DNA of 64,000 bases from Nitrosopumilus sp. Its GTDB lineage: Archaea > Thermoproteota > Nitrososphaeria > Nitrososphaerales > Nitrosopumilaceae. A model generated the notes under the pieces. That model ran no database searches, had not been told where the DNA came from, and saw nothing but the letters and a program-made list of their open reading frames with translations. The stretch covers positions 1,696,001 to 1,760,000 of the forward strand of contig OZ242220.1 of NCBI GenBank assembly GCA_965206745.1, read 5' to 3'. Positions within the stretch are counted from its first letter, which is position 1, and every line of letters begins with the position of its first letter. Position numbers and translations under genes: made by a program. Below, piece by piece: positions 9,891-60,861 of this stretch.

Positions 9891-9917
9891 ATCTGATCAC
9901 TAATCTTGATCAGAGCC
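9891..9917. repeat. Half copy of 47-bp palindromic element (family A)
   Basis: ATCTGATCACTAATCTTGATCAGAGCC; the left arm is replaced by the MITE B end. Confidence 0.75.
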
Positions 9918-9930
9918 TATCAGTACAGAC

Positions 9931-11595
9931 TTAGGATGCAGGATTCGAGATTCTCCCCATGAACAGGATCATGCCGCTCTCATCATCCTGTATGACAAAT
10001 AGAAATGGATGATCGGCGATGAATTTGGGTGGGGGCGGAGGTACTGAGGTATACACAGATATAATAGTAGTCACGGCTGCCGCCTCGGTTCCTTCCTCAT
10101 TTACCTTTACATACGCGTCCTGAACAGCCTTGCTCACATACAGATTTCCACCTTCAGTGGATACAATGCCTGACAAATCTGCAACACCACTGATAAAAAC
10201 ATCAGGCATTCCCATTGCAATCAGAGGATCATTTAATTGGTATTTTGTTCTTGTCTCAAATTTTGGCATCGAGACTATTAACTCCTGATTCCACAGGTTA
10301 TCAGTCCACTTTTGTATCTGTTGGGCAGACAGAGACTCTTCAAATTCTCTCATATCCGGATCGTCAGGTAAGATTACCAGCATGGACAGCCTGTCACCCT
10401 TGTACGGCATCTGAAGCACTTTAGCACCGTCTGAATGGGTGTAGTTAAATCCACCTCTCATATTCATAAAATCTGTATTGACACTTTGCGTGTCACCTGT
10501 ATAAAACTCTGATTTTTTTGTATCCTCCTCTGCAAACTGTATCAGCCAGGTTCCCTTGAAATAGATTGCATTGTTTATCACCATTGCTGTGCCTCCGTTT
10601 ACATCATTTTTGCCTATTACCTCGGTAATCTTGTCATTGGTTTTCTCAGCGGCCCAATCATTTATCCTCTTTACACTGTCATTTTCATCTGTAAAGTCCA
10701 CTGTCTGTGAATCTGCAAGATATGAGCTTCGTGTAATATCAAGATAGGATTCGTATGGTGCAAACCAGTCTGCAATCCACAGTGCGTTTGCCATGTTTAG
10801 TGTTGCGTAATCATCATCACGGTTCAACGAGGATAGCGCATGGGCTGTGGCGTTTTGTCGTGCAAATGCGTCTGATTCAAACCCAAAGACATGTGCCATC
10901 TGCTGTGCTGTATTTTCTTTGGCACCCTCGTACAAAAGCGAGAATGCAACATACATGCTGGCAGGTGAATAGAATATGTTTTTGCCTACCTCTGTATCTA
11001 GAATTTGCTTGTAAAAGTCGACTGCAAATTGATTATTTGCAGAGGATATGGATTCTGGGATTCTCTGTGGTCCGTTCTGTGATACGGCATCTACTGTAAC
11101 TAGGGCGTTTGGAGGTGGTGTTTGGCTTGAATCTGCAGGGAGTCGAATGCCTGACTGTGCTGTTCCATTGGAATCCATGTACCATGGAGCAGGCAATGGT
11201 TGAGCCGGTGGAATCATCTCCACATAATATGGAATATCGCCAAATCGTTCCTTCAATCCTGTCATTACATCATTAAACGCATATTCACAATCTTCACATA
11301 TTCCTATGTATAACGTATCTATTCCATCAATGGACGCGATACCTAACATGTGAATAGGTACACCATCAAACACACTTGCAATAGGATCAGTACTAGTACC
11401 AAATAATACATCAGTCATAATATGCTCTGCTTGCAACAATTCATCAGATACCCCAACGCGTTCAATATAGATAGAATCTTCTTCTTCAGGTATCGTTTGT
11501 ACTGTTTGTACCGTTTGTACCATTACTGTCAATCCTATAAACAAGATTGACACCAATACGGCCGTTAAAATTATTATTTTCTTACTAGATACCAA
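9931..11595 (-). CDS. Serpin 2 (extra N-terminal domain; predicted P1-P1' T-S)
   Basis: Same serpin motifs; RCL EEGTEAAAVTTIISVYTSVPPPPP. Confidence 0.97.
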   Translation of the reverse strand: MVSSKKIIILTAVLVSILFIGLTVMVQTVQTVQTIPEEEDSIYIERVGVSDELLQAEHIMTDVLFGTSTDPIASVFDGVPIHMLGIASIDGIDTLYIGICEDCEYAFNDVMTGLKERFGDIPYYVEMIPPAQPLPAPWYMDSNGTAQSGIRLPADSSQTPPPNALVTVDAVSQNGPQRIPESISSANNQFAVDFYKQILDTEVGKNIFYSPASMYVAFSLLYEGAKENTAQQMAHVFGFESDAFARQNATAHALSSLNRDDDYATLNMANALWIADWFAPYESYLDITRSSYLADSQTVDFTDENDSVKRINDWAAEKTNDKITEVIGKNDVNGGTAMVINNAIYFKGTWLIQFAEEDTKKSEFYTGDTQSVNTDFMNMRGGFNYTHSDGAKVLQMPYKGDRLSMLVILPDDPDMREFEESLSAQQIQKWTDNLWNQELIVSMPKFETRTKYQLNDPLIAMGMPDVFISGVADLSGIVSTEGGNLYVSKAVQDAYVKVNEEGTEAAAVTTIISVYTSVPPPPPKFIADHPFLFVIQDDESGMILFMGRISNPAS

Positions 11596-11715
11596 TGCAA
11601 ATCAAACATTCTGAAAATATATAACAATGTCGAATGATTTGACCCTGAAATTTGGGAGTTTTGTCAAGTGTGTTAGACATCAAATATGGATTCTTTGAAT
11701 TCAAACTCTGAGAAT

Positions 11716-11762
11716 GGCTCGGATCATAAATGGTGATCTGATCACTAATCTTGACTAGAACC
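11716..11762. repeat. 47-bp palindromic element (family A)
   Basis: GGCTCGGATCATAAATGGTGATCTGATCACTAATCTTGACTAGAACC. Confidence 0.85.
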
Positions 11763-11867
11763 GAGTGGAACATTGTTTGACCAAGATCATGGATCAGTTA
11801 AATCAAAGCAATGATTCTAGCAGTGAATAATAGATAGCCTTTTTTTCAACCCTTCTAAGGTACTAAC

Positions 11868-12140
11868 ATGAAAAAAATAGTCGTAATTCTCATATGTTTG
11901 ACCATACCAATCCAGATACTCGTGATATCTGGAATAGTTCTAAAGGGTGCTCCTTTCTGTTATATGGGTGCTCCTCCATTACAGGAAGGTATGGCTACAA
12001 CACAGCAATATAGTTTGCAATGCTATTGGGAAATATACGCTTCTGAATCATATTTGCTTTTACCTGTAATCATAGTGACACTGCCTGTAATGTTGACAGT
12101 TTTCCTAATCCATTATGTGAAAAACCGTAGAAGAGTTTGA
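11868..12140 (+). CDS. Small 2-TM protein with Cys-bounded loop (paralog of 15553..15834)
   Basis: Two hydrophobic segments; C-terminus identical to the paralog (VFLIHYVKNRRRV). Confidence 0.75.
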   Translation: MKKIVVILICLTIPIQILVISGIVLKGAPFCYMGAPPLQEGMATTQQYSLQCYWEIYASESYLLLPVIIVTLPVMLTVFLIHYVKNRRRV

Positions 12141-12245
12141 GATTCTTTCCAGTTTTAGTTGATTGGTCATACAGAAATGGATCTTCAAATCATATGAATA
12201 ATTTTATTGCGAAATTATCAGTCAATTATATGCCTGAAGATGACT

Positions 12246-12292
12246 GGGACTCATCACAAACGGTGATCTGATCACTAATATTGACTAGAGCC
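12246..12292. repeat. 47-bp palindromic element (family A)
   Basis: GGGACTCATCACAAACGGTGATCTGATCACTAATATTGACTAGAGCC, 13 nt beyond the serpin 3 stop. Confidence 0.85.
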
Positions 12293-12305
12293 TATCAGTA
12301 TCGAC

Positions 12306-13637
12306 TTAGGATGTAGGATTCGAGATACGTCCCATAAATAGAATCATTCCGCTCTCATCATCCTGTATGACAAATAGAAATGGATGATCGGCGATGAATC
12401 TCGGTAAAGGAGGTGGGGCAGATACGATTGGAGAAACAATAATGGTAGTCACAGCTGCCGCCTCGGTGCCCTCTTCATTTACCTTTACATACGCATCATG
12501 AATTGCCTGGCTTACAAACAGATCTGCAAATCCAATGCCTGACAAATCTGCACCACCACGGGTAAAAACATCAGGCATCCCCATACTAGCTAGGGGACCG
12601 TTTAAAGAATATTTTGTCTTTGTCTCAAATTTTGGCATCGAGACTATTACCTCCTGATTCGACAGGTTATCTGTCCACTTCTGTATCTGCTGGGCAGACA
12701 AGGACTCTTCAAACTGTCTCATATCAGGATCGTCAGGCAAAATTACCAGCATGGACAGCCTGTCACCCTTGTACGGCATCTGAAGTACCTGGGCACCGTC
12801 TGAATGGATGTAGTTAAACGCACTTTTCACATTCATAAAATCTGCATTGACGCTGTCTGTGGAGTTTGTATGAAACTCTGATTTTTTTGTATCCTCCTCT
12901 GCAAACTGTGTCAACCAGGTTCCCTTGAAATAGATTGCATTGTTTATCACCATTACTGTATCTATGTGTACATCACTTTTTCTTATTACCTCGGTAATCT
13001 TGTCATTGGTTTTCTCAGCGGCCCAATCATTTATCCTCTTTACACTGCCATCCTTATCATCTCCAAAGTCCAATGTCTGTGCCCCTGCAAGGTAGGTGCT
13101 GCGTGCAATATCCAGATAGGATTCGTATGGTGCAAACCAGCCTGCCATCCACAGTGCGTTTGCCATTTCTAGTGTTGCATAGTCATCATCACGGTTCAAC
13201 GAGGATAGTGCATGGGCTGTGGTGTTTTGTCGTGCAAATGCATCTGATTCAAACCCAAAGACATCCTCCATCTGCTGCGCTGTGTCTTGTTTGGCACCCT
13301 CGTACAAAAGCGAGAATGCGACATACATGCTGGCAGGTGAGTAGAATATGTTTTTGCCTTTTTCTGCATCCAGAATTTGCTTGTAAAAGTCGACTGCAAA
13401 TTCATTGTTTGTAGAGGATATGGATTCTGGGATTGTCTGTGGTCCGTATTGTGATACGGCATCTACTGTAACTAGGGCATTTGGAGGTGGTGTTTGGCTC
13501 GGGGTAGTAGGAGACGAGGTGTCTGTCTGTGCTGTTTGGCTTGGGGCTGCAGGAGACGAGGTGTCTGTAGAACTAAACAATGCAATTGAGGCTGCAACTA
13601 GTACTGCACATATTGCAACAATGACGAGTTTATTCAC
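12306..13637 (-). CDS. Serpin 3 (predicted P1 I or V)
   Basis: Serpin motifs; RCL EEGTEAAAVTTIIVSPIVSAPPPLP. Confidence 0.97.
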   Translation of the reverse strand: MNKLVIVAICAVLVAASIALFSSTDTSSPAAPSQTAQTDTSSPTTPSQTPPPNALVTVDAVSQYGPQTIPESISSTNNEFAVDFYKQILDAEKGKNIFYSPASMYVAFSLLYEGAKQDTAQQMEDVFGFESDAFARQNTTAHALSSLNRDDDYATLEMANALWMAGWFAPYESYLDIARSTYLAGAQTLDFGDDKDGSVKRINDWAAEKTNDKITEVIRKSDVHIDTVMVINNAIYFKGTWLTQFAEEDTKKSEFHTNSTDSVNADFMNVKSAFNYIHSDGAQVLQMPYKGDRLSMLVILPDDPDMRQFEESLSAQQIQKWTDNLSNQEVIVSMPKFETKTKYSLNGPLASMGMPDVFTRGGADLSGIGFADLFVSQAIHDAYVKVNEEGTEAAAVTTIIVSPIVSAPPPLPRFIADHPFLFVIQDDESGMILFMGRISNPTS

Positions 13638-13719
13638 GATACAATCACGTATGGCTAGCGCTATATATTGTCCCCATCAGAGACTATAACCCAAAATACA
13701 TGAGAGCCTGTAGAAACAG

Positions 13720-13780
13720 GCGAGTGAGACCTCCACTCAATTAAACAATGTACATCTGATCACAGTATTTGACTAGAGCC
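13720..13780. repeat. MITE B end fused to half copy of the 47-bp element
   Basis: GAGTGAGACCTCCACTCAATTAAACAATG-TAC-ATCTGATCACAGTATTTGACTAGAGCC; same junction as 9860-9917. Confidence 0.75.
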
Positions 13781-13793
13781 TATCAGTACCGAC

Positions 13794-15107
13794 TTAGGAT
13801 GTAGGATCCGAAATTCTCCCCATGAATAGGATCATGCCGCTCTCATCATCCTGTATGACAAATAGAAATGGATGATCGGCGATGAAGGAAGGTGGTTGCG
13901 GTTGTTCTGACGTAGATTCAATAAGAAGAGCAGTTACAGCTGCTGCCTCTGTTCCTTCCTCATTTACCTTTACATAAGCACCTTGAGTTGCCTTGCTCAC
14001 AAACAGATTCCCACCTGGAGAAATTCCAATCCCTGTCAAATCCGCATCACCACTAGAAAAAACATCAGGCATTCCCATTGCAATTAGATGATCATTTAAT
14101 TGATAGTTTGTCCTTGTCTCAAATTTTGGCATCGAGACTATTACTTTCTGATTTGACAGATTATCAGTCCATTTCTGTATCTGTTGGGCAGACAGAGACT
14201 CTTCAAACTGTCTCATATCAGGATCGTCAGGCAAAATTACCAGCATGGACAGCCTGTCACCCTTGTACGGCATCTTTAGTACCTTGGCACCGTCTGAATG
14301 AGTGTAGCCAAATATATTTTCTTCATTCATAAAATCTGCATTAACACTGTCTGTGGCATCTGTATGAAACTCTGATTTTTTTGTATCCTCTTCTGCAAAC
14401 TGTATCAACCAGGTTCCCTTGAAATAGATTGCATTGTTTATCACCATTGCTGTATCATTGTTTACAGTGTTAGGTCCTATTATTTTTGGAATCTTGCCAC
14501 GAGTTTTTTCTGCCGCCCAATCATTTATTCTATCTACACTGTCAGTCTCATCTTCAAAGTCCACTGTCTGTGAATCTGCAAGGTATGTGCTTCGTGTAAT
14601 ATCAAGATAGGATTCGTATGGTGCAAACCAGTCTGCAATCCACAGTGCGTTTGCCATTTCTAGTATTGCGTAATCATCATCACGGTTCAACGAGGATAGT
14701 GCATGTGCTGTGGCGTTGTGTCGTGCAAATGCGTCTGATTCAAACCCAAAGACATCCTCTATCTGCTGTGCCGTGTTTTCTTTGGCACCCTCGTACAAAA
14801 GCGAGAATGCAACATACAAGCTGGCAGGGGAATAAAATATGTTTTTGCCTGATTCTTCATCCAGAATTTGCTTGTAAAAGTCGACTGCAAATTGATTGTT
14901 TGCAGAGGATATGGATTCTGGGATTCTCTGTGGTCCGTTCTGTGATACGGCATCTACTGTAACTAGTGCGTTTGGAGGTGCTGTTTGGCTTGGGGTAGCA
15001 GGGGATAGGGTGTCTGTCTGTGGTGTTTGGCTTGAGTCCACATAGTACAATGCAACAGTGGCAACGACTAGTACTGTACATATTGCGACAATGATGCCTT
15101 TGTTCAT
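13794..15107 (-). CDS. Serpin 4 (predicted P1-P1' T-S)
   Basis: Serpin motifs; RCL EEGTEAAAVTALLIESTSEQPQPP. Confidence 0.97.
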   Translation of the reverse strand: MNKGIIVAICTVLVVATVALYYVDSSQTPQTDTLSPATPSQTAPPNALVTVDAVSQNGPQRIPESISSANNQFAVDFYKQILDEESGKNIFYSPASLYVAFSLLYEGAKENTAQQIEDVFGFESDAFARHNATAHALSSLNRDDDYAILEMANALWIADWFAPYESYLDITRSTYLADSQTVDFEDETDSVDRINDWAAEKTRGKIPKIIGPNTVNNDTAMVINNAIYFKGTWLIQFAEEDTKKSEFHTDATDSVNADFMNEENIFGYTHSDGAKVLKMPYKGDRLSMLVILPDDPDMRQFEESLSAQQIQKWTDNLSNQKVIVSMPKFETRTNYQLNDHLIAMGMPDVFSSGDADLTGIGISPGGNLFVSKATQGAYVKVNEEGTEAAAVTALLIESTSEQPQPPSFIADHPFLFVIQDDESGMILFMGRISDPTS

Positions 15108-15204
15108 TAAACGATTACTCCATATGGCTTATGCTCGACATTGTCCCCCATCAGATATGATAACCCAAAAGATGTGTGCTCCTGCAGAAACAAACGAGGC
15201 ATCA

Positions 15205-15372
15205 ATGCAGTTATTATTTTCTTATTAAATATCAATGCAAATCAAGCATTCTGAAAATATATAAGAATGTCGAATGATTTGATCCTGAAGTTTGGGTATA
15301 CTGTTTAGATCACTTGTGGAAGAATTTGAGAACATTTCAATCTGACAAGTGAGACCTCCACTCAATTAACAG
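15205..15372 (-). pseudogene. Orphan 5' end and promoter of a deleted serpin 1/2-type gene
   Basis: Matches 9715-9885 (TTATTATTTTCTTA..CAATGCAAATCAA.CATTCTGAAAATATATAA..ATGTCGAATGATTTGATCCTGAAGTTTGGG...) with no serpin body. Confidence 0.7.
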
Positions 15373-15418
15373 AGCCTTGAAAAGATATATGTAAATATTT
15401 TCAAAAAAGAAGATAGCC

Positions 15419-15556
15419 ATGCCAAAGTTCTCGAGCCAACTTGAAGCATTAGAAATTCTAAGCGATGCTGAACTGATCAATGAATTAACACAGAGTAGTA
15501 AAGAAGCTAAAAAAGGCAGGACAGTGCCATGGAAGGAAGTAAAGATTTCTGCATGA
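15419..15556 (+). CDS. Orphan RelB/Phd-type antitoxin-like protein, 45 aa
   Basis: MPKFSSQLEALEILSDAELINELTQSSKEAKKGRTVPWKEVKISA*; the LEILSD...GR..PW.EVK pattern is typical of type II antitoxin C-termini. ATGA overlap with the next gene. Confidence 0.6.
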   Translation: MPKFSSQLEALEILSDAELINELTQSSKEAKKGRTVPWKEVKISA

Positions 15557-15834
15557 AAAATATAGGCGAAATTCTCATATGTTTAACCATACCACTCCAG
15601 ATATCCCTGATGCCGGGAATAATTCTAAGTGATGGTCCTTTCTGTTATTATGGCAGTCTTCCATCTCCATTTCCAGAGCTTTACAATATTCCCTCTGTCG
15701 AAGTTACTCTATGTTCTTGGGAAATAAGTGCCTTTTTTGAATCATATTCGGTTTTACCTGTAACTATAATAACACTGCCTGTAATGTTGGCAGTTTTCCT
15801 AATTCATTATGTGAAAAACCGTAGAAGAGTTTGA
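15553..15834 (+). CDS. Small 2-TM protein with Cys-bounded loop (paralog of 11868..12140)
   Basis: Start MKNIGEILICLTIP aligns with the paralog start. Confidence 0.75.
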   Translation: MKNIGEILICLTIPLQISLMPGIILSDGPFCYYGSLPSPFPELYNIPSVEVTLCSWEISAFFESYSVLPVTIITLPVMLAVFLIHYVKNRRRV

Positions 15835-15936
15835 GATTCTTTCCAGTCTTAGTTGATTTGTCATACAAAAATGGATCTTCAAATCATATGAATAATTTTA
15901 TTGTAAGATTACTGATCAGTGATGTGCCTGAACTGA

Positions 15937-15980
15937 AGCTCTGACAAATGGTGATCAGATCGCTGTATTTGACCAGAGCC
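15937..15980. repeat. 47-bp palindromic element (family A), 3-bp deletion
   Basis: AGCTCTGACAAATGGTGATCAGATCGCTGTATTTGACCAGAGCC, 13 nt beyond the serpin 5 stop. Confidence 0.85.
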
Positions 15981-15993
15981 TATCAGTACCGAC

Positions 15994-17589
15994 TTAGGAT
16001 GTAGGATTTGAGATTCGTCCCATGAATAGGATCATGCCGCTCTCATCATCCTGTATGACAAATAGAAATGGATGATCGGCGATGAATTTAGGTGGGGGTG
16101 GGGGGGCAGGTGATAATGAATCAGTTGTAACAATAACAGTAGTTACAGCTGCTGCCTCTGTTCCCTCTTCGTTTATCTTTACATACGCATCTTGCATTGC
16201 TTGGCTTACATACAAGTTTACAACTTCAGTGGACGCAATCCCTGACAAATCTGCAACACGACTAGAAAAAACATCAGGCATCCCCATACTAATTAGTGGA
16301 TTGTTTAAAGAATATTTTGTCTTTGTCTCAAATTTCGGAATCGAGACTATTACCTCCTGATCCCACAGGTTATCAGTCCACTTTTGTATCTGTTGGACAG
16401 ACAATGACTCTTCAAACTGTCTCATGTCAGGATCGTCAGGCAAAATTACCAGCATGGACAGCCTGTCGCCCTTGTACGGCATCTGAAGCACTTGGGCACC
16501 GTCTGAATGGGTGTAGTTAAACGCACTTCTCACATTCATAAAATCTGCATTGATGCCGTGTATGGAATTTGTATGAAACTCTGATTCCCTTGTATCCTCC
16601 TCTGCAAATTGTGTCAACCAAGTTCCCTTGAAATAGATTGCATTGTTTAGCACCATCGCTGTATCTGCGTTTACAGCTTCAGGTCCTATTATTTTTGGAA
16701 TCTTGTCACGAGTTTTTTCTGCCGCCCAATCATTTATTCTATTTACACTGTCATCCTCATCTGTAAAGTCCACTGTCTGTGCATCTGCAAGATATGAGCT
16801 TCGTGTAATATCAAGATAGGATTCGTATGGTGCAAACCAGTTCGCAATCCACAGTGCGTTTGCCATTTCTAGTGTTGTGTAATCATCATCACGGTTCAAC
16901 GAGGATAGTGCATGGGCTGTGGCGTTTTGTCGTGCAAATGCGTCTGATTCAAACCCAAAGACATCCTCCATCTGCTGTGCCGTGTTTTCTTTGGCACCCT
17001 CGTACAAAAGCGAGAATGCGACATACATGCTGGCAGGTGAGTAGAATATGTTTTTGCCTTTTTCTGCATCCAGAATTTGCTTGTAAAAGTCGACTGCAAA
17101 TTGATTGTTTGCAGAGGATGTGGATTCTGGGATTCTCTGTGGTCCGTTCTGTGATACGGCATCTACTGTAACTAGGGCGTTTGGAGGTGCTGTTTGGCTT
17201 GGGGTAGTAGGAGACGAGGTGTCTGTCTGTGGTGTTTGGCTTGGGGTAGTAGGAGACGAGGTGTCTGTCTGGGGTGTTTGGCTTGGGGCAGTAGGAGACG
17301 AGGTGTCTGTCTGTGGTGTTTGGCTTGGGGTAGTAGGAGACGAGGTGTCTGTCTGTGGTGTTTGGCTTGGGGTAGTAGGAGACGAGGTGTCTGTCTGGGG
17401 TGTTTGGCTTGGGGCAGTAGGAGACGAGGTGTCTGTCTGTGGTGTTTGGCTTGGGGTAGTAGGAGACGAGGTGTCTGTCTGGGGTGTTTGGCTTGGGGCA
17501 GTAGGAGACGAGGTGTCTGTAGAACTAAACAATGCAATCGAGGCTACAACTAGTACCGCACATATTGCGACAATGACTAGTTTATTCAC
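15994..17589 (-). CDS. Serpin 5 with long Ser/Thr/Pro stalk (predicted P1-P1' D-S)
   Basis: Serpin motifs; RCL EEGTEAAAVTTVIVTTDSLSPAPPPPP. Confidence 0.97.
   Translation of the reverse strand: MNKLVIVAICAVLVVASIALFSSTDTSSPTAPSQTPQTDTSSPTTPSQTPQTDTSSPTAPSQTPQTDTSSPTTPSQTPQTDTSSPTTPSQTPQTDTSSPTAPSQTPQTDTSSPTTPSQTPQTDTSSPTTPSQTAPPNALVTVDAVSQNGPQRIPESTSSANNQFAVDFYKQILDAEKGKNIFYSPASMYVAFSLLYEGAKENTAQQMEDVFGFESDAFARQNATAHALSSLNRDDDYTTLEMANALWIANWFAPYESYLDITRSSYLADAQTVDFTDEDDSVNRINDWAAEKTRDKIPKIIGPEAVNADTAMVLNNAIYFKGTWLTQFAEEDTRESEFHTNSIHGINADFMNVRSAFNYTHSDGAQVLQMPYKGDRLSMLVILPDDPDMRQFEESLSVQQIQKWTDNLWDQEVIVSIPKFETKTKYSLNNPLISMGMPDVFSSRVADLSGIASTEVVNLYVSQAMQDAYVKINEEGTEAAAVTTVIVTTDSLSPAPPPPPKFIADHPFLFVIQDDESGMILFMGRISNPTS
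17190..17520. repeat. Coding 39-bp VNTR, about 8.5 copies (QTDTSSPTT/APSQTP)
   Basis: Tandem GGTGTTTGGCTTGGGGTAGTAGGAGACGAGGTGTCTGTC units with no spacers. Confidence 0.95.
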
Positions 17590-17669
17590 GATACAATCAC
17601 GTATGGCTCGCGCTATATATTGTCCCCATCAGATACTATAACCCAAAAGACATGGGAGCCTACAGAAAC

Positions 17670-17702
17670 AGACGAGTAAAACCCCCATTCAATTAAACAA
17701 TG
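17670..17702. mobile_element. MITE family B terminal fragment
   Basis: GACGAGTAAAACCCCCATTCAATTAAACAATG. Confidence 0.65.
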
Positions 17703-17707
17703 CAAAG

Positions 17708-22439: not shown

Positions 22440-22444
22440 CAGTA

Positions 22445-24021: not shown

Positions 24022-24025
24022 GTCT

Positions 24026-32142: not shown

Positions 32143-32161
32143 CAGTATTTTATACGATGTA

Positions 32162-45940: not shown

Positions 45941-46229
45941 TACAGATTTGTAAGATCTATGGTATTAAAGCAAGGCGAAGCTAATGTATGGTCACAGTTA
46001 ATGGATCATAATGCTTGTCGATAAGATTGTGAGAACAGGCAAGCCTCATATGAAATTTCTGATCCCCCAGATTCCCAGCATCCCCAATCTCTCTTCTGGG
46101 AATGCATGGATTTGAAAATTTTGCAATGATTTTACACGTCAAATGACGGGATTTCATCCTTGAAATGTGTCTTGTAGATAACCAGCACTCTGAACCATCA
46201 GGCAGGATACTCCCCGAATACGAGGCAGG

Positions 46230-51886: not shown

Positions 51887-52462
51887 ATGCTAGTGAACCA
51901 AATGCAAATCCAGATAAACCCCAGGATGTCTTTATTATTTGCATTGAATAAATATCAGATTCTAATCATTGCAGTTGCAGTACTGGCTACCGCCCTTGTC
52001 TTGACAATTACCATGAATACATCAATAACACTACCTGAGCCAGTCGATGGCGACCTTACTCATTCTATTGAGGTACTGACTAGTCCCTCTGAGATAGACG
52101 GGCTGAACCGAAAGACGCCTTATCTTCCACCAAAGATTACAGAGCAGGAACTGGTACATGAAAAAATAAAGCAGGGTGTGGTGTATGTTTTGGGTGCATC
52201 AAATGCACCGGAAATAAAAGGACAGGTAATTTTCAGTACTGATTATCCCCCATCCAAATACAAGATTACTCAACCCGGCCCGTTTGATTACATAACTGAA
52301 ATTTACGTCACGGACAAAGAATTCAATCAGTACAGATCGTGGGCAGATGAAAACCTGGTTCCAAAGGGGGTTGAACACGATTCTGACAGTTATTATTTTG
52401 AGTATGATGGGGAGATTATCATAATGAACTTTGTAGATACAGTCATGCGACAAGGCAACTAA
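51887..52462 (+). CDS. Membrane-anchored protein, TPY.PP family
   Basis: Paralog of 34826 and 53821. Confidence 0.8.
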   Translation: MLVNQMQIQINPRMSLLFALNKYQILIIAVAVLATALVLTITMNTSITLPEPVDGDLTHSIEVLTSPSEIDGLNRKTPYLPPKITEQELVHEKIKQGVVYVLGASNAPEIKGQVIFSTDYPPSKYKITQPGPFDYITEIYVTDKEFNQYRSWADENLVPKGVEHDSDSYYFEYDGEIIIMNFVDTVMRQGN

Positions 52463-52659: not shown

Positions 52660-53544
52660 TCAGTTCTCAGGATACTCGTTGGCTATTGTTCCGTCAGCCA
52701 AATAAGTGAATTTTGTATTCCCGTTCTCCCAGTACTCTGCATATAATATTCCATTTTCGCGATAGTGGAATTTTTTCTTTCTGTTTTGATCTTCTGCATA
52801 CTCGTACTCGATCTGTCCATTTGGATGATAATTATATCTTATATTCCCGTTTTCATACCATTCATCTGTGATTCTGCCTTTATCATCATAACCTGTTTTC
52901 CGTTTCCCATCTTCCCAGTACTCCATTCGTGTACTGCCATCCTCATAGTATGATACTTTGTTGGTTCCGTCTTCACGGAATTCCATTCGTGTACTGCCAT
53001 CCTCATAGTATGATACTTTGCTGGTTCCGTCTTCACGGAATTCCATTCGTGTACTGCCATCCTCATAGTATGATATTTTGCGGGTTCCGTCTTCATGGAA
53101 TTCTTCTAACAGGTTTCCATTCTTGGAATAAGATGCTTTCTGATTCCCGTTTTCCCAATACACCCTTCCCGTGTTTCCATTATTCCAGTATGATATTATG
53201 GGGGTTCCGTCTTCACGGAATTCACTAGCTTTTGTTGTCATGTTTCCAACAAGCCAATAGTCTGTTTTCACGTTTCCATTATCCCAGTATTCCGTTTTAC
53301 TGTCATCTATTCTTTCTATCGATAATGGATCATCGGAGGGGACTCGTGGCTGATGATGACAATATTCGGATACTTTGAGAAATTTTTCTTCTTGAGCAGG
53401 TGTCATGTCTGTGCCGTCAAAGTCGTCTATGACATTGCAATCCCTATTAGCCAGAACCTGATCCAGCTGTGACTGACTGCCGGCAGCTACTGTTACAATT
53501 GCTGCAACTGCGACAATCCCGATAATAATGTAAATGTATTTCAT
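52660..53544 (-). CDS. Anchored MORN/YwqK-like repeat protein
   Basis: TM MKYIYIII..., Cys pair, YWENG and FREDG repeats; 60-bp tandem x3 at 52922-53101. Confidence 0.82.
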   Translation of the reverse strand: MKYIYIIIGIVAVAAIVTVAAGSQSQLDQVLANRDCNVIDDFDGTDMTPAQEEKFLKVSEYCHHQPRVPSDDPLSIERIDDSKTEYWDNGNVKTDYWLVGNMTTKASEFREDGTPIISYWNNGNTGRVYWENGNQKASYSKNGNLLEEFHEDGTRKISYYEDGSTRMEFREDGTSKVSYYEDGSTRMEFREDGTNKVSYYEDGSTRMEYWEDGKRKTGYDDKGRITDEWYENGNIRYNYHPNGQIEYEYAEDQNRKKKFHYRENGILYAEYWENGNTKFTYLADGTIANEYPEN

Positions 53545-53652
53545 TTGAACACTTAAATTTTTAGGGATTGCAGGAGTATCCAATAATTTTAAAGAGATTG
53601 CCCATTTTAAAAAAATTGTGTTTTGCATGACTCAGTTCAGATGATTGTTTGC

Positions 53653-53699
53653 GGTTCTGGTTACAAATGGTGATTGAATCACTGTGTTTGACCAGAACA
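53653..53699. repeat. 47-bp palindromic element (family A)
   Basis: GGTTCTGGTTACAAATGGTGATTGAATCACTGTGTTTGACCAGAACA. Confidence 0.8.
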
Positions 53700-53820
53700 T
53701 GCCCATGCAGTCAAATCTCCGATGATTCCCAAAAGAATTGGCAAAAGATACCATATGGAACACTCTACCCATGTTTTAACTCATCCTCATATCCTAGATC
53801 ACCATTTCTGATTAGCGTCA

Positions 53821-54387
53821 TCATGGCACTATTACAGGCTCAAGATCCTCTGTGTACGCCTGATTATAACTTTGTATATTTTCTTCATCCATAAAGATCA
53901 CTTCAACGACCTCCCCATCATACTCAAAATAATAACGGTTAAAATCGTGATCAACTCCTTTTGGAATCAGGTTTTCATCTGCCCACGATTGGTACTGATT
54001 GAATTCATCATGTGTGACGTAAATGTAAGTTTCAGAACCGAATGCACTGAGTTGAACAACACTATATTTGGATGGAGGATGATCGGTACTGAAAATCATC
54101 TCTCCTTGTATTTGTACATTTGATGCACCCATAACATACACCACTCCCTGCTTTATTTTTTCATGTACCAGATCCTGCTCTGTAAGGGTTGGTGGGAGAT
54201 AGGGTGTCCTTCGGTTCAATCCGTCTATCTCAGAGGGAGTAGTCTCTACTTTAATAAAATGAGTAAGGTCGTTATCGGCAGGATCAGGACTCGGTAAGAA
54301 CATAGATGCATTCATGGCCATTGCCAAGACAAGGACGGCAGCCAGTATTCCAGTCGCAATGATTGGAATCTGATATTTAGTGTTCAA
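53821..54387 (-). CDS. Membrane-anchored protein, TPY.PP family
   Basis: Paralog of 51887 and 34826. Confidence 0.8.
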   Translation of the reverse strand: MNTKYQIPIIATGILAAVLVLAMAMNASMFLPSPDPADNDLTHFIKVETTPSEIDGLNRRTPYLPPTLTEQDLVHEKIKQGVVYVMGASNVQIQGEMIFSTDHPPSKYSVVQLSAFGSETYIYVTHDEFNQYQSWADENLIPKGVDHDFNRYYFEYDGEVVEVIFMDEENIQSYNQAYTEDLEPVIVP

Positions 54388-54416
54388 TAGAAAAAAATGA
54401 AATCGTTTTTGCGTTG

Positions 54417-54537
54417 TTTTTCGTCATTGGTAGTATCACACTGTAGAGATTAATAGGGATTGTGTACAATTTACAGCTGTAATTTGTACACAATGGTTTT
54501 AAGCAAGTGCACGAGGTTTTACAATGTAACTTCCATT
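54417..54537. promoter_or_regulatory. Divergent promoter with palindromic operator, copy 3
   Basis: TTGTGTACAATTTACAGCTGTAATTTGTACACAA (54460-54493), a near-perfect dyad flanked by GATTAATAG and TTTTAAG. Confidence 0.75.
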
Positions 54538-54714
54538 GACGGTTTTGTGTAATCTTGGGAGGCCTGAAACATGGATCTTGTTCTGATTCAAAAATTCCTC
54601 AAATCACATCCTCTTGAAGGCAGGCCCCCACATCCGGAATTGAGCAGGCAGTCAAATATCCCCGGCTTCAGACCGTATAGGAACTTTTATTCATTTGAAT
54701 GAAACTAGCTTATC

Positions 54715-55965
54715 ATGAACTTTACACACAAGATCCTAGTGCTGGTGGCACTACAGATCATACTAATCATTACAAGCTTTTTGATCATAGTATACTTTGA
54801 GTCCCAGACTGCCCTTACTGGAAACAGGGTCAATATTGCCGGCAAGAACAGGGTATTGACAAGTCTGGTTCATGTGAATATGATTCAGAGCATGTATAGT
54901 GGTGCAGATGATGTCAGGGTGGTCACAGCACTTGAGGATTTGGAGGAGAACATTATGTTTCTCAGGGATGGGGGAATGCTAAATGACATCGAGATACCTC
55001 CTCTTCCATCAGAGTTTGTAGCCGATTGGGGTGCCGTATGGACCAAATTCACAGCATATGATAGTGTTATCAGATCCTCATTGAGTGATCTCAATCTTGA
55101 TGATGTGGACCAAGTCATGAATATAGATACAACAAACTTGGAACTAGTGGGTGTCTCTGACTCGCTCACCAGGAAGCTAGGCGACAGCGTGGATGACCTC
55201 TCTGATCATCTTATAATGCTTCAGATTACACTAGGTATAGTAAACGTGATGGTGCACGTTTTTATGATCATATTCGTACTTCGGATCTTCAAAAGTCACA
55301 CAGAGCAGAAGATAAAGACAGAACGGTTTACCACCATAGGCCAGTTTGCATCCCTGATGGCCCATGATCTGAGGAATCCACTTGGAGCGATAAGAAACTC
55401 GCTTGTAATAATAACTGGTCGCAACGACGGTAACAACGAGGTGATCGACTCTGAGTGCTCCAGAATCGACCGTTCCATAAACAGGATGGCCCACCAGATA
55501 GACGGCGTCATGCACTATGCACGCAATGTCCCACTCTTCACAAAGTCATGTTCCATGTGTGAGATCATACATAGGAGCATGGAGACGATAAATATCCCAG
55601 AAAATATAGACACAAAGTTTCCAGAGAATGACACGGCAATAACGTGTGACTCGACAAAGATGGAGTTTGTCTTTACAAACCTAATGCTCAACGCGATTCA
55701 GGCAATAGGCAGCAATAAAGGCAGCATCACAATACGGCTGACAGACCGACCTGCAGAAATCGCCCTTGAGTTTGAAAATTCCGGTCCTGCAATACCGGAA
55801 GAGAACCTACAGCGCATATTCGAACCGCTCTTTACGACAAAGATGCAGGGAACGGGTCTGGGCCTGGTCAGCTGTACGGGGATAGTTCAACGGCACGGCG
55901 GGCACATCACCGTGCGAAATGATCCGGTCACATTTACAGTGGTGATCCCAAAGGAAGGTATCTGA
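54715..55965 (+). CDS. Sensor histidine kinase (2 TM, PilJ/NarX-like sensor)
   Basis: VNIAGKNR P-box-like motif; H-box AHDLRNPL; NLMLNAIQA; FEPLFTTK; GTGLGL. Confidence 0.93.
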   Translation: MNFTHKILVLVALQIILIITSFLIIVYFESQTALTGNRVNIAGKNRVLTSLVHVNMIQSMYSGADDVRVVTALEDLEENIMFLRDGGMLNDIEIPPLPSEFVADWGAVWTKFTAYDSVIRSSLSDLNLDDVDQVMNIDTTNLELVGVSDSLTRKLGDSVDDLSDHLIMLQITLGIVNVMVHVFMIIFVLRIFKSHTEQKIKTERFTTIGQFASLMAHDLRNPLGAIRNSLVIITGRNDGNNEVIDSECSRIDRSINRMAHQIDGVMHYARNVPLFTKSCSMCEIIHRSMETINIPENIDTKFPENDTAITCDSTKMEFVFTNLMLNAIQAIGSNKGSITIRLTDRPAEIALEFENSGPAIPEENLQRIFEPLFTTKMQGTGLGLVSCTGIVQRHGGHITVRNDPVTFTVVIPKEGI

Positions 55966-56330
55966 TGCATTCTAAGAAGATTCTGATCATCGATGATGAC
56001 GTGGAGTTTCGCGAGTCAATACACATGATTCTAATGGATGTGGATCACAACGTCATCTCCATTCCAAACGCCATCGAGGCTACCTCAGTCTATGCCGAGT
56101 TTGAGCCAGACATAGTGTTTCTGGACATAAGGATGCCCATAGTTGATGGGTATAGTGCCTTTTTTCAGATAACCAGGCGGGATCCTGATGCACGGATAGT
56201 CTTTGTATCAAGCTATGATCTGGATGAGAAAAAGTACAGGCGTGCCATGGATGTCGCACCCGTAGGTGTGCTTGAAAAGCCGCTCAGATTTTCAGATCTC
56301 AAAAAGATGATCAAGATGCACGCAAAATAA
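55965..56330 (+). CDS. Stand-alone response regulator receiver
   Basis: ILIIDDD, VFLDIRMP, LEKP. Confidence 0.93.
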   Translation: MHSKKILIIDDDVEFRESIHMILMDVDHNVISIPNAIEATSVYAEFEPDIVFLDIRMPIVDGYSAFFQITRRDPDARIVFVSSYDLDEKKYRRAMDVAPVGVLEKPLRFSDLKKMIKMHAK

Positions 56331-56334
56331 GATA

Positions 56335-57174
56335 TCATGGCAAAGCATGCTTGTTCTTCATGCCGCTGACTATTCCGGCATAGTGGGCAGAGGCATTGTG
56401 AAAGAATTCAGAGTACCATCCATGCAGGTCCTCATCACCTTCCAGCATCCTGCGCATTCTCTTGGCCCTGCCCTGTGTCTTTCTGGAGTGCAGATGCGGA
56501 TACATCAGAAACGTATAGAACCAGTATGATATCTGCTCTGCCAGATCCTGCTCTATGATTGATTCCAGGTTTCTGGCATATTTGACATGGATAAACGACA
56601 TGAGTGCGTAGAGGGGATTGCTCGGATCCTGCATTACCTGGCTGTCAAGAAGTATTCCCTTTGCAAGAATCCGCAGCTTGTACACATCACTTTTCAGTGC
56701 CGATTTTAGATCCTTCCACCTGCCAAACACCCTTGGAAGCTGATCTGAATATTTTGATGCCATGGTGTCAATCTCTCTGTTGGTGGGATTCAGGACATCC
56801 ATACAGTACAGTATCCCGTGCAGGGAGAGGCAGTACAAATGGGATATCTTTTTGCCTGTTATTTTCTTACTTTTCAGCACCAGTCCAAGGTCAAACATTC
56901 CGTCGTTGTGGCTGCCTCCATCTGACCTTCCGATGAGGAGCCTTCTGTATCCCTTCTCGTTTGCCCTGATCACGCTAATCTTGGAATGCTGTATCTTTGC
57001 CATCTCCCACGTGGTGCACTGCCCGTTTGTAAACAGGATGTACAACAGTTCTCGCACGTTCCTCTGGTGTTTTGTCAGCCTCTTGCTGTTACCACCGTAC
57101 AGCCTGTGGGCTGCAGGCATGGTGTGAATCTTGTATGACATGAGGTTCCCGTAGCGTATTCCATGTTCAGTCAA
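56335..57174 (-). CDS. Thaumarchaeal winged-helix-like putative regulator
   Basis: TTWEMAK...YRRLLIGR...LSLHGILY...LPRVFGRW. Confidence 0.7.
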   Translation of the reverse strand: MTEHGIRYGNLMSYKIHTMPAAHRLYGGNSKRLTKHQRNVRELLYILFTNGQCTTWEMAKIQHSKISVIRANEKGYRRLLIGRSDGGSHNDGMFDLGLVLKSKKITGKKISHLYCLSLHGILYCMDVLNPTNREIDTMASKYSDQLPRVFGRWKDLKSALKSDVYKLRILAKGILLDSQVMQDPSNPLYALMSFIHVKYARNLESIIEQDLAEQISYWFYTFLMYPHLHSRKTQGRAKRMRRMLEGDEDLHGWYSEFFHNASAHYAGIVSGMKNKHALP

Positions 57175-57420
57175 TGACGTAGATGTGTAATGTTGCTATA
57201 TAATGATGTTAAGAATTGCATCAAGTTACAGTCCGGATTCGTATCATCTTGAGCATGTCCTGCCTCAAACTGGCACAGATGTGTAAATGGGTTTTGTTCA
57301 TCTCGGTTTTTCCGATCCTGCAATAAATATGGGGTTTTTTACAGTTTTCACGCCTAAGAGGCATGCCGTAGGGAGGCAGATGTCGCTAAATAACACCATG
57401 ATGATAGATATGACAATAAC

Positions 57421-58008
57421 ATGAAAAACATGCAAAAATCAGAAATGATTTTTTCAGGTATTAACAACATGAAAAATGCAAAATGTACAATACCGTTCTT
57501 GGCATTAATTTTACTGATACCAGCAGGCATCGATAATTCATTTGCACAAGAATCAAGTCAAAAGGCACCCATCTATGATCCTGCTGTTGTACAATACATC
57601 AAAGAGATCATTTCTCGAAATGGTGAACACACACAAGAGAAAACAATAGACGGGCAAACTATGTCAGTTACAACAAACATCCAAGTAACAGATGGTAGTT
57701 ATGTAGCAAGAACTACAGCTAGTGTAAACGATGAAAGAATAATGTCTGAAACTTTCAGAATAGTTGCAAATGATGATAGCACATACAAACTCATCAATGA
57801 CAATCTGGGAATTGATGAAACGTTTACAGATGTATCTCAAGGTGCAACTGGAGATGCGACTTCATCAACCAGATCTAGCATATCTCTAACCGATAGAGAG
57901 TGTGATACTTTTCATACGTTACTTCCAAGTGACAGTTATTCAGCTTGTTCTACCTTTAATCAAGAACAAATAAAATCTTTAGAGGCTGAACCGGGTGATA
58001 TCCTATAA
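57421..58008 (+). CDS. Secreted protein, apparently chimeric or truncated
   Basis: Signal peptide ending SFA. The last about 12 codons (KSLEAEPGDIL) are homologous to the end of 27624..28109 (KSLGAELDDVL). Confidence 0.6.
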   Translation: MKNMQKSEMIFSGINNMKNAKCTIPFLALILLIPAGIDNSFAQESSQKAPIYDPAVVQYIKEIISRNGEHTQEKTIDGQTMSVTTNIQVTDGSYVARTTASVNDERIMSETFRIVANDDSTYKLINDNLGIDETFTDVSQGATGDATSSTRSSISLTDRECDTFHTLLPSDSYSACSTFNQEQIKSLEAEPGDIL

Positions 58009-58280
58009 TGTACAGGGACAAGGTTCAGATTATTGCAGAAATCATTGCAAGGCTTACAGAATCTGAATCAATAGTAAGGACAAATCTGCTCTCATACTGC
58101 AATCTTAATCCATCAAGGGACCAGTCAATACTAGATGAATTAGAAGAGAAAGATCTCATCAAAAAAGATGTGTACTCTAATGGCAGAAAAACAATCAGCA
58201 AATACGCAATTACGCAGAAAGGGAGAGAATTCCACCAAAGGGTACTAGAGCCATACGGGGAGTTGTTTTGTAGGAAATGA
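58008..58280 (+). CDS. Archaeal winged-HTH regulator (HTH_45-like)
   Basis: YRDKVQIIAEII...TNLLSYCNLN...LDELEEKDLI...YAITQKGREF. Confidence 0.88.
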   Translation: MYRDKVQIIAEIIARLTESESIVRTNLLSYCNLNPSRDQSILDELEEKDLIKKDVYSNGRKTISKYAITQKGREFHQRVLEPYGELFCRK

Positions 58281-58529
58281 TTTGTTTTGCCTCAGATTCC
58301 GGAAAAACAGGATTCTAGTACAGATTGTCCTTGAATGATAAGCCGGATTAAGGCACACGCAAGTATGGCATCTATATGATTTCACACTTTGTGATTTTTG
58401 AGATGTTTCCATAATTGCAGATCTGAATGAGGGCTTTTTTGATTCAATTTTGTTGGACCGGGGAAGACTAGAGACGATACAGTCATGCAACAAGATACTT
58501 TTATCTTTCTGATACCTGATTCTAGTCTT

Positions 58530-59183
58530 TCAATTCTCAGAATATTGGTCAGCTAATGTCCCATTTTCATGATAGCGGAATTTTTTCTTTCCGTATTCAT
58601 CTTCTGCATATTCGTAGATCTGTCCAGTTGGATGATACCAATATTTTGGATTTCCATTTTCATAGAATTCATTTGTCATTCTGCCTTTATCATCATAACG
58701 TGTTTTCTCATTCCCATTCTCCCAGTACTCCATTTCCGTACTACCATTATCCCAGTATGATATTTTACCGGTTCCGTCTTCACTGTACTCATAATATATT
58801 GTTGTCGAGTTTACAGTATCCCAGTATGATATTTTACCGGTTTCGTCTTCACGGTACTCACGATATATTGTTGTCGAGTTTACAACATCCCAGTATTCTG
58901 TTTTCTTGTTTCCATTATCCCAATATTCTGTTTTACTGTCATCTATTTTTTCTATCGATGGCGGATCATCGAGTCCAATAAACGGATGTAGACCGCAATA
59001 TTCACCTAGTTTACCTAATTTTTCTGCTTGATCTGGAGATATTATCCCGAAGCTAGGGCTATTGGCTAATGCATAGCAATCCCTATTAGCCAGAATCTGA
59101 TCTAGTGACTGTTGACTGCCGATAGCCATTATTACAATTGTTGCAACAGCGATAATCGCGATAATAATGTAAATGTATTCCAT
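58530..59183 (-). CDS. Anchored MORN/YwqK-like repeat protein (paralog of 52660)
   Basis: Shared LDQ.LANRDC and SIE.IDDSKTEYWDNGN; fewer repeats. Confidence 0.82.
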   Translation of the reverse strand: MEYIYIIIAIIAVATIVIMAIGSQQSLDQILANRDCYALANSPSFGIISPDQAEKLGKLGEYCGLHPFIGLDDPPSIEKIDDSKTEYWDNGNKKTEYWDVVNSTTIYREYREDETGKISYWDTVNSTTIYYEYSEDGTGKISYWDNGSTEMEYWENGNEKTRYDDKGRMTNEFYENGNPKYWYHPTGQIYEYAEDEYGKKKFRYHENGTLADQYSEN

Positions 59184-59430
59184 TTGAACGCTTGAATTTT
59201 TAGGGACTGCAGGAGTATCCAATAATTTTAAAGAGATCGTACATTTTAAAAAAATTGTGCCTTATTGCATGACTCTTCAGATGATTGGTTTGCTCTGCAG
59301 TCTGAACCAAACCATACTCTCTGAGATCATGTCGCCATCTGGAGATGTTTTTGGTGAGACTGTAAGTACGTGTGGACCCTCATACCAGTCAAAGATGGTT
59401 AAAATATGATGAATTACAAGCAAGATTGAT

Positions 59431-59922
59431 TTGGCAAGCAAGCTGGAACTGATATCAAGTGTGCTGAGGACAAGGAGGTACGCATCTGTTGCCATAGTTA
59501 GCGGCACAGGACTTGGAATAATCTACTACTTTTTGACAATGTCGCTGTTTTCATCCCATCTGGAAGTCACAATGAATACAATGCAGTCATACATTATAAC
59601 CTCCGTGGTGCTGACAGTGGTAATATCATCACTGGCAGGGATAAACTTTGCAATGATGGCATTCAAGATAAAGAGGATGAAAATGATGAATTCCGTAAAA
59701 TCAAACTCGTCGGCAGTACTCGGAGGGGCGTTTGCCGCATTCACTCCGGGATGTCCGGCATGTACTGCACCCCTTGCAGTGATTTTAAGTGCAGTCGGTG
59801 GACTCTCACTGTTCCCAATGCAGGGACTGGAGTTAAAGTTCATCTCAGTGGGGGTTTTGACATTCTCCATCTGGTGGATTGCAAGGGGCCTGCAAAGCAA
59901 GAGCTGCTGCAAGATAGGCTGA
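59431..59922 (+). CDS. Membrane protein with CxxC and terminal CC motifs
   Basis: 4 TM; TPGCPACT; KSCC. Confidence 0.75.
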   Translation: MASKLELISSVLRTRRYASVAIVSGTGLGIIYYFLTMSLFSSHLEVTMNTMQSYIITSVVLTVVISSLAGINFAMMAFKIKRMKMMNSVKSNSSAVLGGAFAAFTPGCPACTAPLAVILSAVGGLSLFPMQGLELKFISVGVLTFSIWWIARGLQSKSCCKIG

Positions 59923-60008
59923 GGCATACCAGTAGAGCTGCCAAGTGCAATCCCTTGCTTGAGGAATATAGAGAATGAGTTTTAAATGCACAGATCAATG
60001 CAGTATCC

Positions 60009-60815
60009 GTGAGAAGAAAGAGAGCATTGCTAATCATCCTGCTCGGCATCATCACGGTATCAGGGGTGGACGCGTTTGTAATCGAGCCCAACATCATCGA
60101 GGTAAACGAGATAGACATCACAGGTACGGGAACCGAGATGAAGGTCGGCTTTATTGCGGATTTCCAAAGACAAAACTCTGATCCCGCGTTTGTTCAGCGT
60201 GCAGTCGACATGCTAAATGCAAGAGAACCTGATGTAATAGTGATTGGAGGTGATTTCATAGATACCAGTCTTGATGAGCTGCCGTCCCTTGAGCCGCTGG
60301 GGGGGTTGGATGCCAGATACGGCGTGTATGGCGTACTGGGAAATCACGATTATAGCGTGTATTCTTTTAGCCGGGGCAACGCCAACCTGGAGCTGGCTGA
60401 GGCAGTGATAGAGTATCTTCAGGGGAACGGTCCAATCAGGATTCTCAGAAACGAGAATGTTGCAGTCAAAGACATTAGGATAGTGGGCCTTGACTCTTAC
60501 TGGGCCGGTCTGAGGGATTCAGAGAAGGCCTTTGCAGGTACAGCAGACGAGTTTAAAATTTTATTGTCACACAATCAGAATGACTTGGAGATAAGCAAGG
60601 AGACAGCAGACGTGTATCTGTTCGGGCACACGCACTGCGGACAGGTCAGGCTCCCATATATCGGATCCATACCAAAAATTGCGGGCTTTGAGGGGGAGTA
60701 CGACTATAAGCACTATATCGTCAACGGCGCTGACGTGTACACGACGTGCGGCCTGGCCCCTGCGCCAAGGTTCTTCAATCCGCCTGAAATCACAATCATA
60801 AACTTGTTAGAGTAG
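60009..60815 (+). CDS. Calcineurin-like metallophosphoesterase (YkuE type)
   Basis: ADFQ, GGDFID, LGNHD, LSHN, GHTHCGQ. Confidence 0.92.
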   Translation: MRRKRALLIILLGIITVSGVDAFVIEPNIIEVNEIDITGTGTEMKVGFIADFQRQNSDPAFVQRAVDMLNAREPDVIVIGGDFIDTSLDELPSLEPLGGLDARYGVYGVLGNHDYSVYSFSRGNANLELAEAVIEYLQGNGPIRILRNENVAVKDIRIVGLDSYWAGLRDSEKAFAGTADEFKILLSHNQNDLEISKETADVYLFGHTHCGQVRLPYIGSIPKIAGFEGEYDYKHYIVNGADVYTTCGLAPAPRFFNPPEITIINLLE

Positions 60816-60861
60816 GCTCTGGTCAAATACAGTGATCAGACCACCATTTATGACCAGAACT
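60815..60861. repeat. 47-bp palindromic element (family A), inverted, overlapping the stop codon
   Basis: GGCTCTGGTCAAATACAGTGATCAGACCACCATTTATGACCAGAACT. Confidence 0.85.

Follow-up and report, generated by a model that had tools for sequence, protein, structure and literature searches.

A 64-kb stretch of the genome of Nitrosopumilus sp. (contig OZ242220.1 of assembly GCA_965206745.1, positions 1,696,001 to 1,760,000; hereafter the window, on which alone every window-level result below rests) contains a family of dispersed 47-bp near-palindromes. The family is real and orientable, its members lie outside coding sequence, and several coincide with points at which the homology between related loci stops. 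These breakpoints are the most informative result of our analysis. We favour, with about even confidence, the reading of the element as a small mobile palindrome, non-autonomous and specific to the lineage, copies of which later served as substrates of recombination and in this way built a tandem array of serpin genes. Judged by analogy, the nearest described elements would be the SMR and the terminal-only PATE of Haloquadratum and, in functional terms, the bacterial REPs (repetitive extragenic palindromes).

A family of orientable near-palindromes

A left-arm pattern with up to three mismatches matched five times in the window, as compared to 0.00 matches expected from 100 shuffles. An nhmmer profile derived from the seven full copies found each of them again (E 5e-16 to 3e-13) together with the right-half copies at 13754 (E 4.5e-6) and 9883-9917 (E 8.7e-5), and gave weaker matches at 61281-61306 (E 0.025) and 53796-53815 (E 0.075). 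The same seven full copies and two halves, and nothing else convincing, were found by a covariance model that was run with filters off. The inventory of the window comprises these seven full copies and two right halves, a third right half, which is degenerate (61281-61304), and a stub of 7 nt (15370-15376) (Table 1). All nine positions at which the initial annotation had placed the element or half of it hold what was described.

Table 1 Copies and partial copies of the near-palindrome in the window, with covariance model (CM) scores
Copy	Position	Strand	CM score (bits)	Setting and remarks
Full, best palindrome (20 of 23 Watson-Crick pairs)	33654-33700	+	71.9	RNA fold -29.2 kcal/mol, z -7.3; 127 nt upstream of purD; 342 nt beyond stop of 34043-34657
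Full, inverted relative to 33654; outer end of one arm degraded; 14 Watson-Crick pairs	36216-36262	-	62.8	Convergent genes on either side; 122 nt beyond stop of 35482-36093
Full	53653-53699	+	67	Paralogue homology ends at base 53652
Full	60815-60861	-	69.8	First base is last base of phosphoesterase stop codon (1-nt overlap)
Full	11716-11762	+	64.7	Sole copy in a divergent intergenic region
Full, left arm degraded	12246-12292	+	62.4	13 nt beyond serpin 3 stop
Full, 3-bp deletion	15937-15980	+	58.2	13 nt beyond serpin 5 stop
Right half only	9891-9917	+		13 nt beyond serpin 2 stop; cut at palindrome centre and fused to R2 head
Right half only	13754-13780	+		13 nt beyond serpin 4 stop; same junction as 9891
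Degenerate right half, lost from about the centre onward	61281-61304	-		nhmmer E 0.025; about 21 of 24 positions match serpin-region variant
7-nt stub, outer end of right arm	15370-15376	+		Fused to R2 head upstream of serpin 4
Possible left-half remnant, uncertain	53796-53815	-		E 0.075; 12 exact inner-left-arm bases; 8 nt beyond stop of 53821-54387

Each full copy consists of two 23-bp arms that flank one central base, and 86% of the arm cells form standard pairs, i.e., the arms are terminal inverted repeats of a short non-coding element. As first annotated, length is conserved apart from a single 3-bp deletion (47 bp in six of the seven full copies, 44 bp at 15937), and the element is orientable, with every copy scoring at least 20 bits higher one way round in the covariance model. 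With a GC content of about 45% it is not GC-rich. Left-arm and right-arm variants occur among the copies in all four combinations.

Pairwise identity among the copies averages 76% (range 66-86%). Between 13 and 20 of the 23 possible Watson-Crick pairs are retained per copy; with the exception of the copy at 33654, the range is 13-17 pairs and predicted folds reach -10.8 to -14.6 kcal/mol. All seven copies fold better than their own shuffles (z -2.0 to -7.3). Covariation in the stems, proposed as a check in the initial annotation, was no better than in shuffles: the observed values for pairing, double changes, and covariation score were reached in 223, 140, and 130 of 500 partner shuffles, respectively, and compensatory stem changes did not exceed chance (two double-change pairs, both within one copy). 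Neutral decay after insertion would be expected to leave just such diverged copies, with hairpins that decay without covariation. The two GATC sites at the centre give no obvious methylation or restriction signal, as GATC is only mildly under-represented (0.79 of expectation).

A 27-nt core pattern, which fits five of the seven window copies, found no copy among 185,579 species genomes, a collection from which the source genome and relatives carrying the element are missing; the 33 loci returned, in unrelated bacteria and one Poseidonia metagenome-assembled genome, match the pattern columns alone and are chance. That only chance matches occur in this collection indicates a narrow lineage range and not a general thaumarchaeal signal. 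Among plasmids and phages, blastn with the best copy gave partial matches only (E 0.3 or worse), and Rfam gave none, neither at the gathering threshold nor with E relaxed to 1. No description of small palindromic repeats or transposable elements of the miniature inverted-repeat type (MITEs) in Thaumarchaeota was found in the literature searched, and a survey of thaumarchaeal mobile elements covers proviruses, casposons, integrative and conjugative elements, cryptic elements, and insertion sequence (IS) elements without using the word MITE.

Placement behind genes and breakpoints at the element

All seven full copies are non-coding, overlapping a gene by at most 1 nt, as compared to 14% of random 47-mers. 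In six of six independent cases, with the serpin copies taken as one event, it is the same arm of the element that is turned toward the nearest gene 3' end (two-sided p ~0.03), and for three independent copies a stop codon is no more than 24 nt away. The copy at 11716, which has divergent genes on its sides, departs from the 3' placement. Flanking genes of the independent copies are unrelated (serpin, purD region, DUF4870-like, repeat-protein paralogues, phosphoesterase, DUF5678-like), and the copies occupy the lower-GC, paralogue-rich parts of the window. The initial annotation saw the element overlap the phosphoesterase stop codon at a border between core and accessory genes. The overlap is 1 nt, and the border is apparent at this copy (60815) only, where the GC content of the 1-kb flanks steps from 0.49 to 0.37; a step was seen at one of ten copies.

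The reported lack of target duplications was borne out at all seven full copies. The best direct repeat measures 0-3 bp, even with the ends shifted by 3 nt, which is within chance given that random sites yield direct repeats of 2-3 bp in 75% of trials. Flanks of independent copies have no target word in common.

Part of the family is tied to five tandem serpin genes on the minus strand (8014-17589, 83-88% DNA identity). Four copies lie 13 nt beyond serpin stop codons, in agreement with the initial annotation. All four belong to one duplicated unit and therefore represent one event, not four. The homology of serpin 1 to serpins 2-5 runs past the stop codon and across the 13-nt spacer and ends where the element of the others begins, with 8001 paired to 9918, 12293, 13781, and 15981. 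Past this boundary, serpin 1 has an inverted piece of R2, a second dispersed repeat of the window.

Homology also stops at the element at two further loci. The paralogues 52660-53628 and 58530-59222 share a high-scoring segment pair (53170-53652 versus 58806-59293) that stops 1 nt before the element at 53653, and their homology does not resume beyond it. The open reading frame (ORF) 60996-61298, encoding a DUF5678-like protein of 100 aa, diverges from nine of nine homologues just after a conserved glycine, the codon of which is made up of the first three bases of the half element at 61281. The half element replaces the last eight codons of the ORF and gives it its last five codons, glycine first, and its stop codon; the homologues extend 8-10 residues past the element start (9/9), and no remnant of the lost codons was found downstream. 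The nine homologues include a paralogue of 104 aa, 82% identical, that is presumably encoded in the same genome.

Homology stops at the outer end of the element in these three independent cases (serpin 1, the 52660/58530 paralogues, and ORF 60996). When elements were placed at random in 20,000 trials, at least two of nine fell on a homology boundary in 0.3%. Two independent truncations lie near the centre of the palindrome, one being the junction shared by 9891 and 13754 and the other the half copy at 61281. The initial annotation had held that an absence of rearrangement breakpoints at the element would reduce it to an ordinary MITE; three end and two centre breakpoints are present. Direct copies bracket two modules, 11763-12245 (between 11716 and 12246; 483 nt with a 90-aa ORF) and 60862-61280 (enclosed by 60815 and the 61281 half copy), and two pairs of copies are inverted (33654/36216 and 53653/60815).

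Origin of the element

We propose that an enzyme encoded elsewhere in the genome spread the element in the past. The non-coding sites close behind genes would be former insertion points, as suggested by placement and by the replaced gene end, and insertion would leave no target duplication, with the copies having drifted apart since. Once dispersed, the copies could have undergone ectopic and illegitimate recombination, breaking at the tips of the arms and at the hairpin centre; the outcomes would be the tandem serpin array, in which every unit junction has an element, the bracketed modules, the end breakpoints, and the half copies. Replacement of a coding end by the element, past which nine of nine homologues continue, argues against a purely selected origin in 3' untranslated regions. 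If correct, the proposal would add a small palindromic, MITE-like class of repeats to the Thaumarchaeota and offers a concrete explanation for the origin of the tandem serpin array. With breakpoints exact to the base, the element is also a useful marker from which rearrangements can be reconstructed, and an enzyme acting on it, if there is one, would provide a handle on archaeal genome plasticity.

No such enzyme is encoded in the window. The linked transposase, tyrosine recombinase, or HUH nuclease that the initial annotation envisaged was absent, with no transposase, integrase, or HUH nuclease among 149 ORFs or frames searched against Pfam (60 main ORFs and 89 further) or among 57 ORFs searched against NCBIfam, and no Y1 domain, TnpA/TnpB, or RAYT in the window. 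We considered as a transposase the sizeable unknown cytoplasmic protein encoded at 56335-57174 inside the 53653/60815 pair and rejected it as a conserved core gene; this conserved hypothetical has 366 matches at E <=0.001, and the 120 listed include Nitrosopumilus and Nitrosarchaeum at 43-75% identity.

Several observations weigh against a history of simple insertion and decay. Mobility was not observed, the window showing neither an empty site or polymorphism nor a parent element or transposase. Decay is uneven: conservation of the central GGTGATC-N-GATCACC and of TTGAC clearly exceeds that of the remainder, columns 11-30 vary in 10 of 140 cells versus 38 of 186 elsewhere (Fisher p 0.0008, for a region picked after looking), and the right-arm TTGAC is invariant (0 of 35 cells changed) while its mirror in the left arm varies. 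Uneven conservation and an asymmetric TTGAC indicate a sequence-specific constraint that plain decay does not explain, which implies that the sequence of the inner palindrome is read by something, asymmetrically. The facing of gene 3' ends by the same arm could instead reflect a role in transcripts. Finally, IS200/IS605 elements insert next to a conserved short target word, and the lack of any such word in the flanks of our element argues against a typical IS200/IS605 derivative.

Uneven conservation and orientation bias keep alive a host function at gene ends, in which the element would be a hairpin in 3' untranslated regions that protects or ends transcripts in REP-like fashion, or a site for a dimeric DNA-binding protein, with dispersal being secondary. 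The same arm faces the nearest gene 3' end in each independent case, three independent copies lie close to a stop codon, every copy folds better than its shuffles, and the central palindrome and TTGAC are conserved. However, 140 of 500 shuffles reach the two double changes observed, so that compensatory change is not beyond chance, and four of the seven hairpins are weak (-10.8 to -13.5 kcal/mol). Wobble pairs (17 G-T versus 9 A-C, a difference that is not significant and partly shared by descent) show their G-T excess on the strand opposite transcripts, the wrong direction for selection on RNA. A bacterial-type scan, which does not cover archaeal termination, gave eight terminator-like sites in the regions 9500-16500, 33000-37000, and 53000-62000, none of them at a copy, and no Rfam family matches. 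The scan of species genomes speaks against a general thaumarchaeal signal, and one copy truncates a gene. We consider a host function unlikely.

The initial annotation left a choice between a minimal MITE made of two abutted IS5-like ends and a hairpin recombination site used for cassette shuffling. Each captures something and neither is demonstrated. In favour of the MITE, the element belongs to a family of short, non-coding, intergenic inverted repeats, and like classical MITEs, which are moved by a DDE transposase in trans, it is small and has terminal inverted repeats. Unlike these, it shows target duplications at none of seven copies and has no internal sequence, and the 149 ORFs or frames of the window yielded no parent IS with matching ends and no transposase. 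The IS5-like label is unsupported; the arm tips may resemble the ends of the IS6 family. IS200/IS605 has been described as the dominant IS family in Ca. Nitrososphaera gargensis (PMC6563490). The missing duplications and this dominance in a thaumarchaeon favour a duplication-free mechanism, HUH-type or SMR-like, over a DDE-type MITE.

A site for a site-specific or hairpin-directed recombinase, with integron-like or lox/dif-like insertion, excision, and inversion and with crossover at the centre or the tips, appears improbable. Direct copies enclose two small modules, the region 9.9-16 kb is an array-like run of modules parted by copies in the same orientation, and two inverted pairs are present, all of which such a site could produce. 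It could also produce breakpoints at the centre (two independent) and the ends (three independent), and the half-copy junction has four bases of possible overlap with the R2 head. The inner palindrome is best conserved, and the four combinations of arm variants are those that recombination at the centre would yield. Yet homologous recombination between any dispersed repeats gives bracketed modules and end breakpoints as well, the four combinations depend on C/T transitions that can recur, and the serpin-linked copies are a single duplicated unit. Arms are badly degraded in many copies, which would be odd for live sites, and orientations are mixed elsewhere in the window. Moreover, no integrase or recombinase is encoded in the 64 kb, stem covariation is lacking, and the attC core motif is found in none of seven copies. 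Like attC sites, the element is an imperfect, orientable palindrome located after ORFs, with a local same-orientation run between single-gene modules. In addition to the missing cores, integrase, and covariation, it differs by its mixed orientation outside the serpin region and by its fixed length of 47 bp, attC length being variable. Integrons have been reported in Archaea (bioRxiv 10.1101/2022.02.06.479319).

A more novel form of this reading is an undescribed archaeal system for module shuffling, the enzyme of which, encoded outside the window, would cut the hairpin centre and the arm tips, insert single-gene modules such as serpins and small ORFs beside copies already present, invert segments that lie between inverted copies, and build accessory arrays of the symbiont type. 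We consider such a system a long shot. The element looks less like part of a new gene-shuffling system than like a tiny, decaying mobile repeat of the MITE or REP kind that sits at points of repeated breaking and rejoining.

It is similarly doubtful that the element was never self-mobile and that a single ancestral palindrome was carried passively by segmental duplication of paralogous families. The window is a mosaic of paralogues and of short intergenic modules that recur in it, four copies do belong to one duplicated serpin unit, and a copy lies downstream of both paralogous membrane-protein loci (33741-34023 and 36549-36861). These two loci, however, carry their copies in opposite orientation and at different distances, the flanking genes of independent copies are unrelated, and paralogy or orthology halts exactly at the element in three cases and does not run through it. 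Replication-origin boxes, a dif site, a CRISPR repeat, and a viral att site were dropped on anatomy, as the element is dispersed and neither arrayed, single-copy, nor paired around an integrated element, and a tRNA-linked att site was dropped as the window has no tRNA genes.

For the favoured reading of a small mobile palindrome, described repeats provide partial models. According to their description in Haloquadratum walsbyi, PATEs include a 52-bp terminal-only form, a palindrome-bearing remnant with strain-specific insertions, and SMRs are about 110 bp long, with inverted terminal repeats unrelated to known transposons and without target duplication (PMC3119063). Like the element, both are archaeal, non-coding, and far too short for a transposase, and both are, as described there, often fused to or interrupted by other small repeats, as the element is with R2. 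The inverted repeats and the lack of duplications and of plasmid or phage matches agree with SMR, although SMR is a descriptive class and the likeness one of description. SMRs differ by having internal sequence, whereas the element is arms only, and PATEs are described as lacking terminal inverted repeats and as tied to IS605-type ends of the same genome. Both come from another phylum.

Bacterial REP sequences and REPINs are mobilised by RAYT and have a conserved GTAG or CGTC head (PMC3733652; see also PMC2817692, PMC3116915). As far as described, they are short, imperfect, and orientable extragenic palindromes without target duplication, often touching or directly behind stop codons, and known as hot spots of recombination and IS insertion, which is reminiscent of the element. 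In contrast, the element has a GTAG or CGTC head at an end in none of seven copies (one CTAC straddles the boundary), no RAYT is encoded in the window, its GC content is about 45%, and REPs are reported for bacterial phyla (PMC3733652). As the element departs from classical MITEs, REPs, and attC sites in their defining features, it is assigned to a general kind and not to one family.

Other repeats and gene modules of the window

The repeat R2 is about 145 nt long, and its full copies at 5318-5460 (+) and 32000-32144 (-) are 81% identical. Its head, which bears a small hairpin, recurs at ~9845-9890, 13700-13750, 15330-15369, and 17669-17704; it precedes four of the five serpins by about 110 nt, and to it the half palindromes are joined. 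The 7-nt stub at 15370 appears to derive from the junction seen at 9891 and 13754. The inverted partial copy of R2 at ~7930-8000 lies directly behind serpin 1, and the far end of the copy at 32000 is 25 nt from the start of gene 31502-31975. R2 may be a movable promoter or leader module.

The serpins themselves (437-577 aa) have N-terminal linkers rich in Ser, Thr, Pro, and Gln that stem from 42-nt repeats in differing number, and their promoter regions are of two types that are shuffled among the five genes. Expansion of serpins is a reported hallmark of sponge-associated ammonia-oxidising relatives (PMC6790972), which suggests a sponge-associated lifestyle of the host.

A third intergenic repeat of about 79 nt is present in two inverted copies, 36365-36441 and 62527-62605 (91% identical), and a weaker one at 58433-58493; one copy is some 100 nt away from the 36216 palindrome. 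Several other intergenic pieces, 56-101 nt long, are shared among 27497, 34718, 36915, 36984, 52592, 54409-54592, and 58364-58562. The palindrome at 53653 and the gene 52660-53628, which encodes a repeat protein with 60-nt internal repeats, are flanked by the inverted paralogues 51887-52462 (+) and 53821-54387 (-) (80% identical), a third paralogue of which is found at 34826-35485. The purD-like gene next to the palindrome at 33654 (32162-33526) has an unusually low GC content (0.34), scores 256.5 bits, under the purD equivalog cut-off of 288, and sits in a 6-kb low-GC stretch (31.5-37.8 kb) between core genes of higher GC content.

The region 17958-24613 is a block of higher GC content (0.47-0.53) with an 861-aa HerA/FtsK-like ATPase, which has weak TraD, VirB4, and CedD matches, and with a 15-nt tandem repeat of roughly 10-12 units (18103-18282); the five or six ORFs that come next match no family. 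This block may be a DNA-transfer module or the remnant of an integrated element. A 2.2-kb tandem duplication at 41576-45984 (91.6% identical) gives rise to two proteins of 665-672 aa that begin with a WING-49 domain at the N-terminus and have MORN-variant repeats as well as tandem coding repeats of 15-18 nt, after which an RHS/YD-repeat protein is encoded at 46452-48500. At 62705-63941, a ThiF/E1-like protein (DUF6791 and ThiF, running off a 310-aa open frame) adjoins a DUF6527 protein. The pair recalls ubiquitin-like defence modules and has a weak match to an anti-phage model of the cap2 type.

The window also encodes a 4-hydroxybutyrate--CoA ligase (1372 bits versus an equivalog cut-off of 1300). 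Beside it lies an HpaB-family enzyme that is probably the 4-hydroxybutyryl-CoA dehydratase; the pair of ligase and putative dehydratase marks the thaumarchaeal carbon-fixation cycle.

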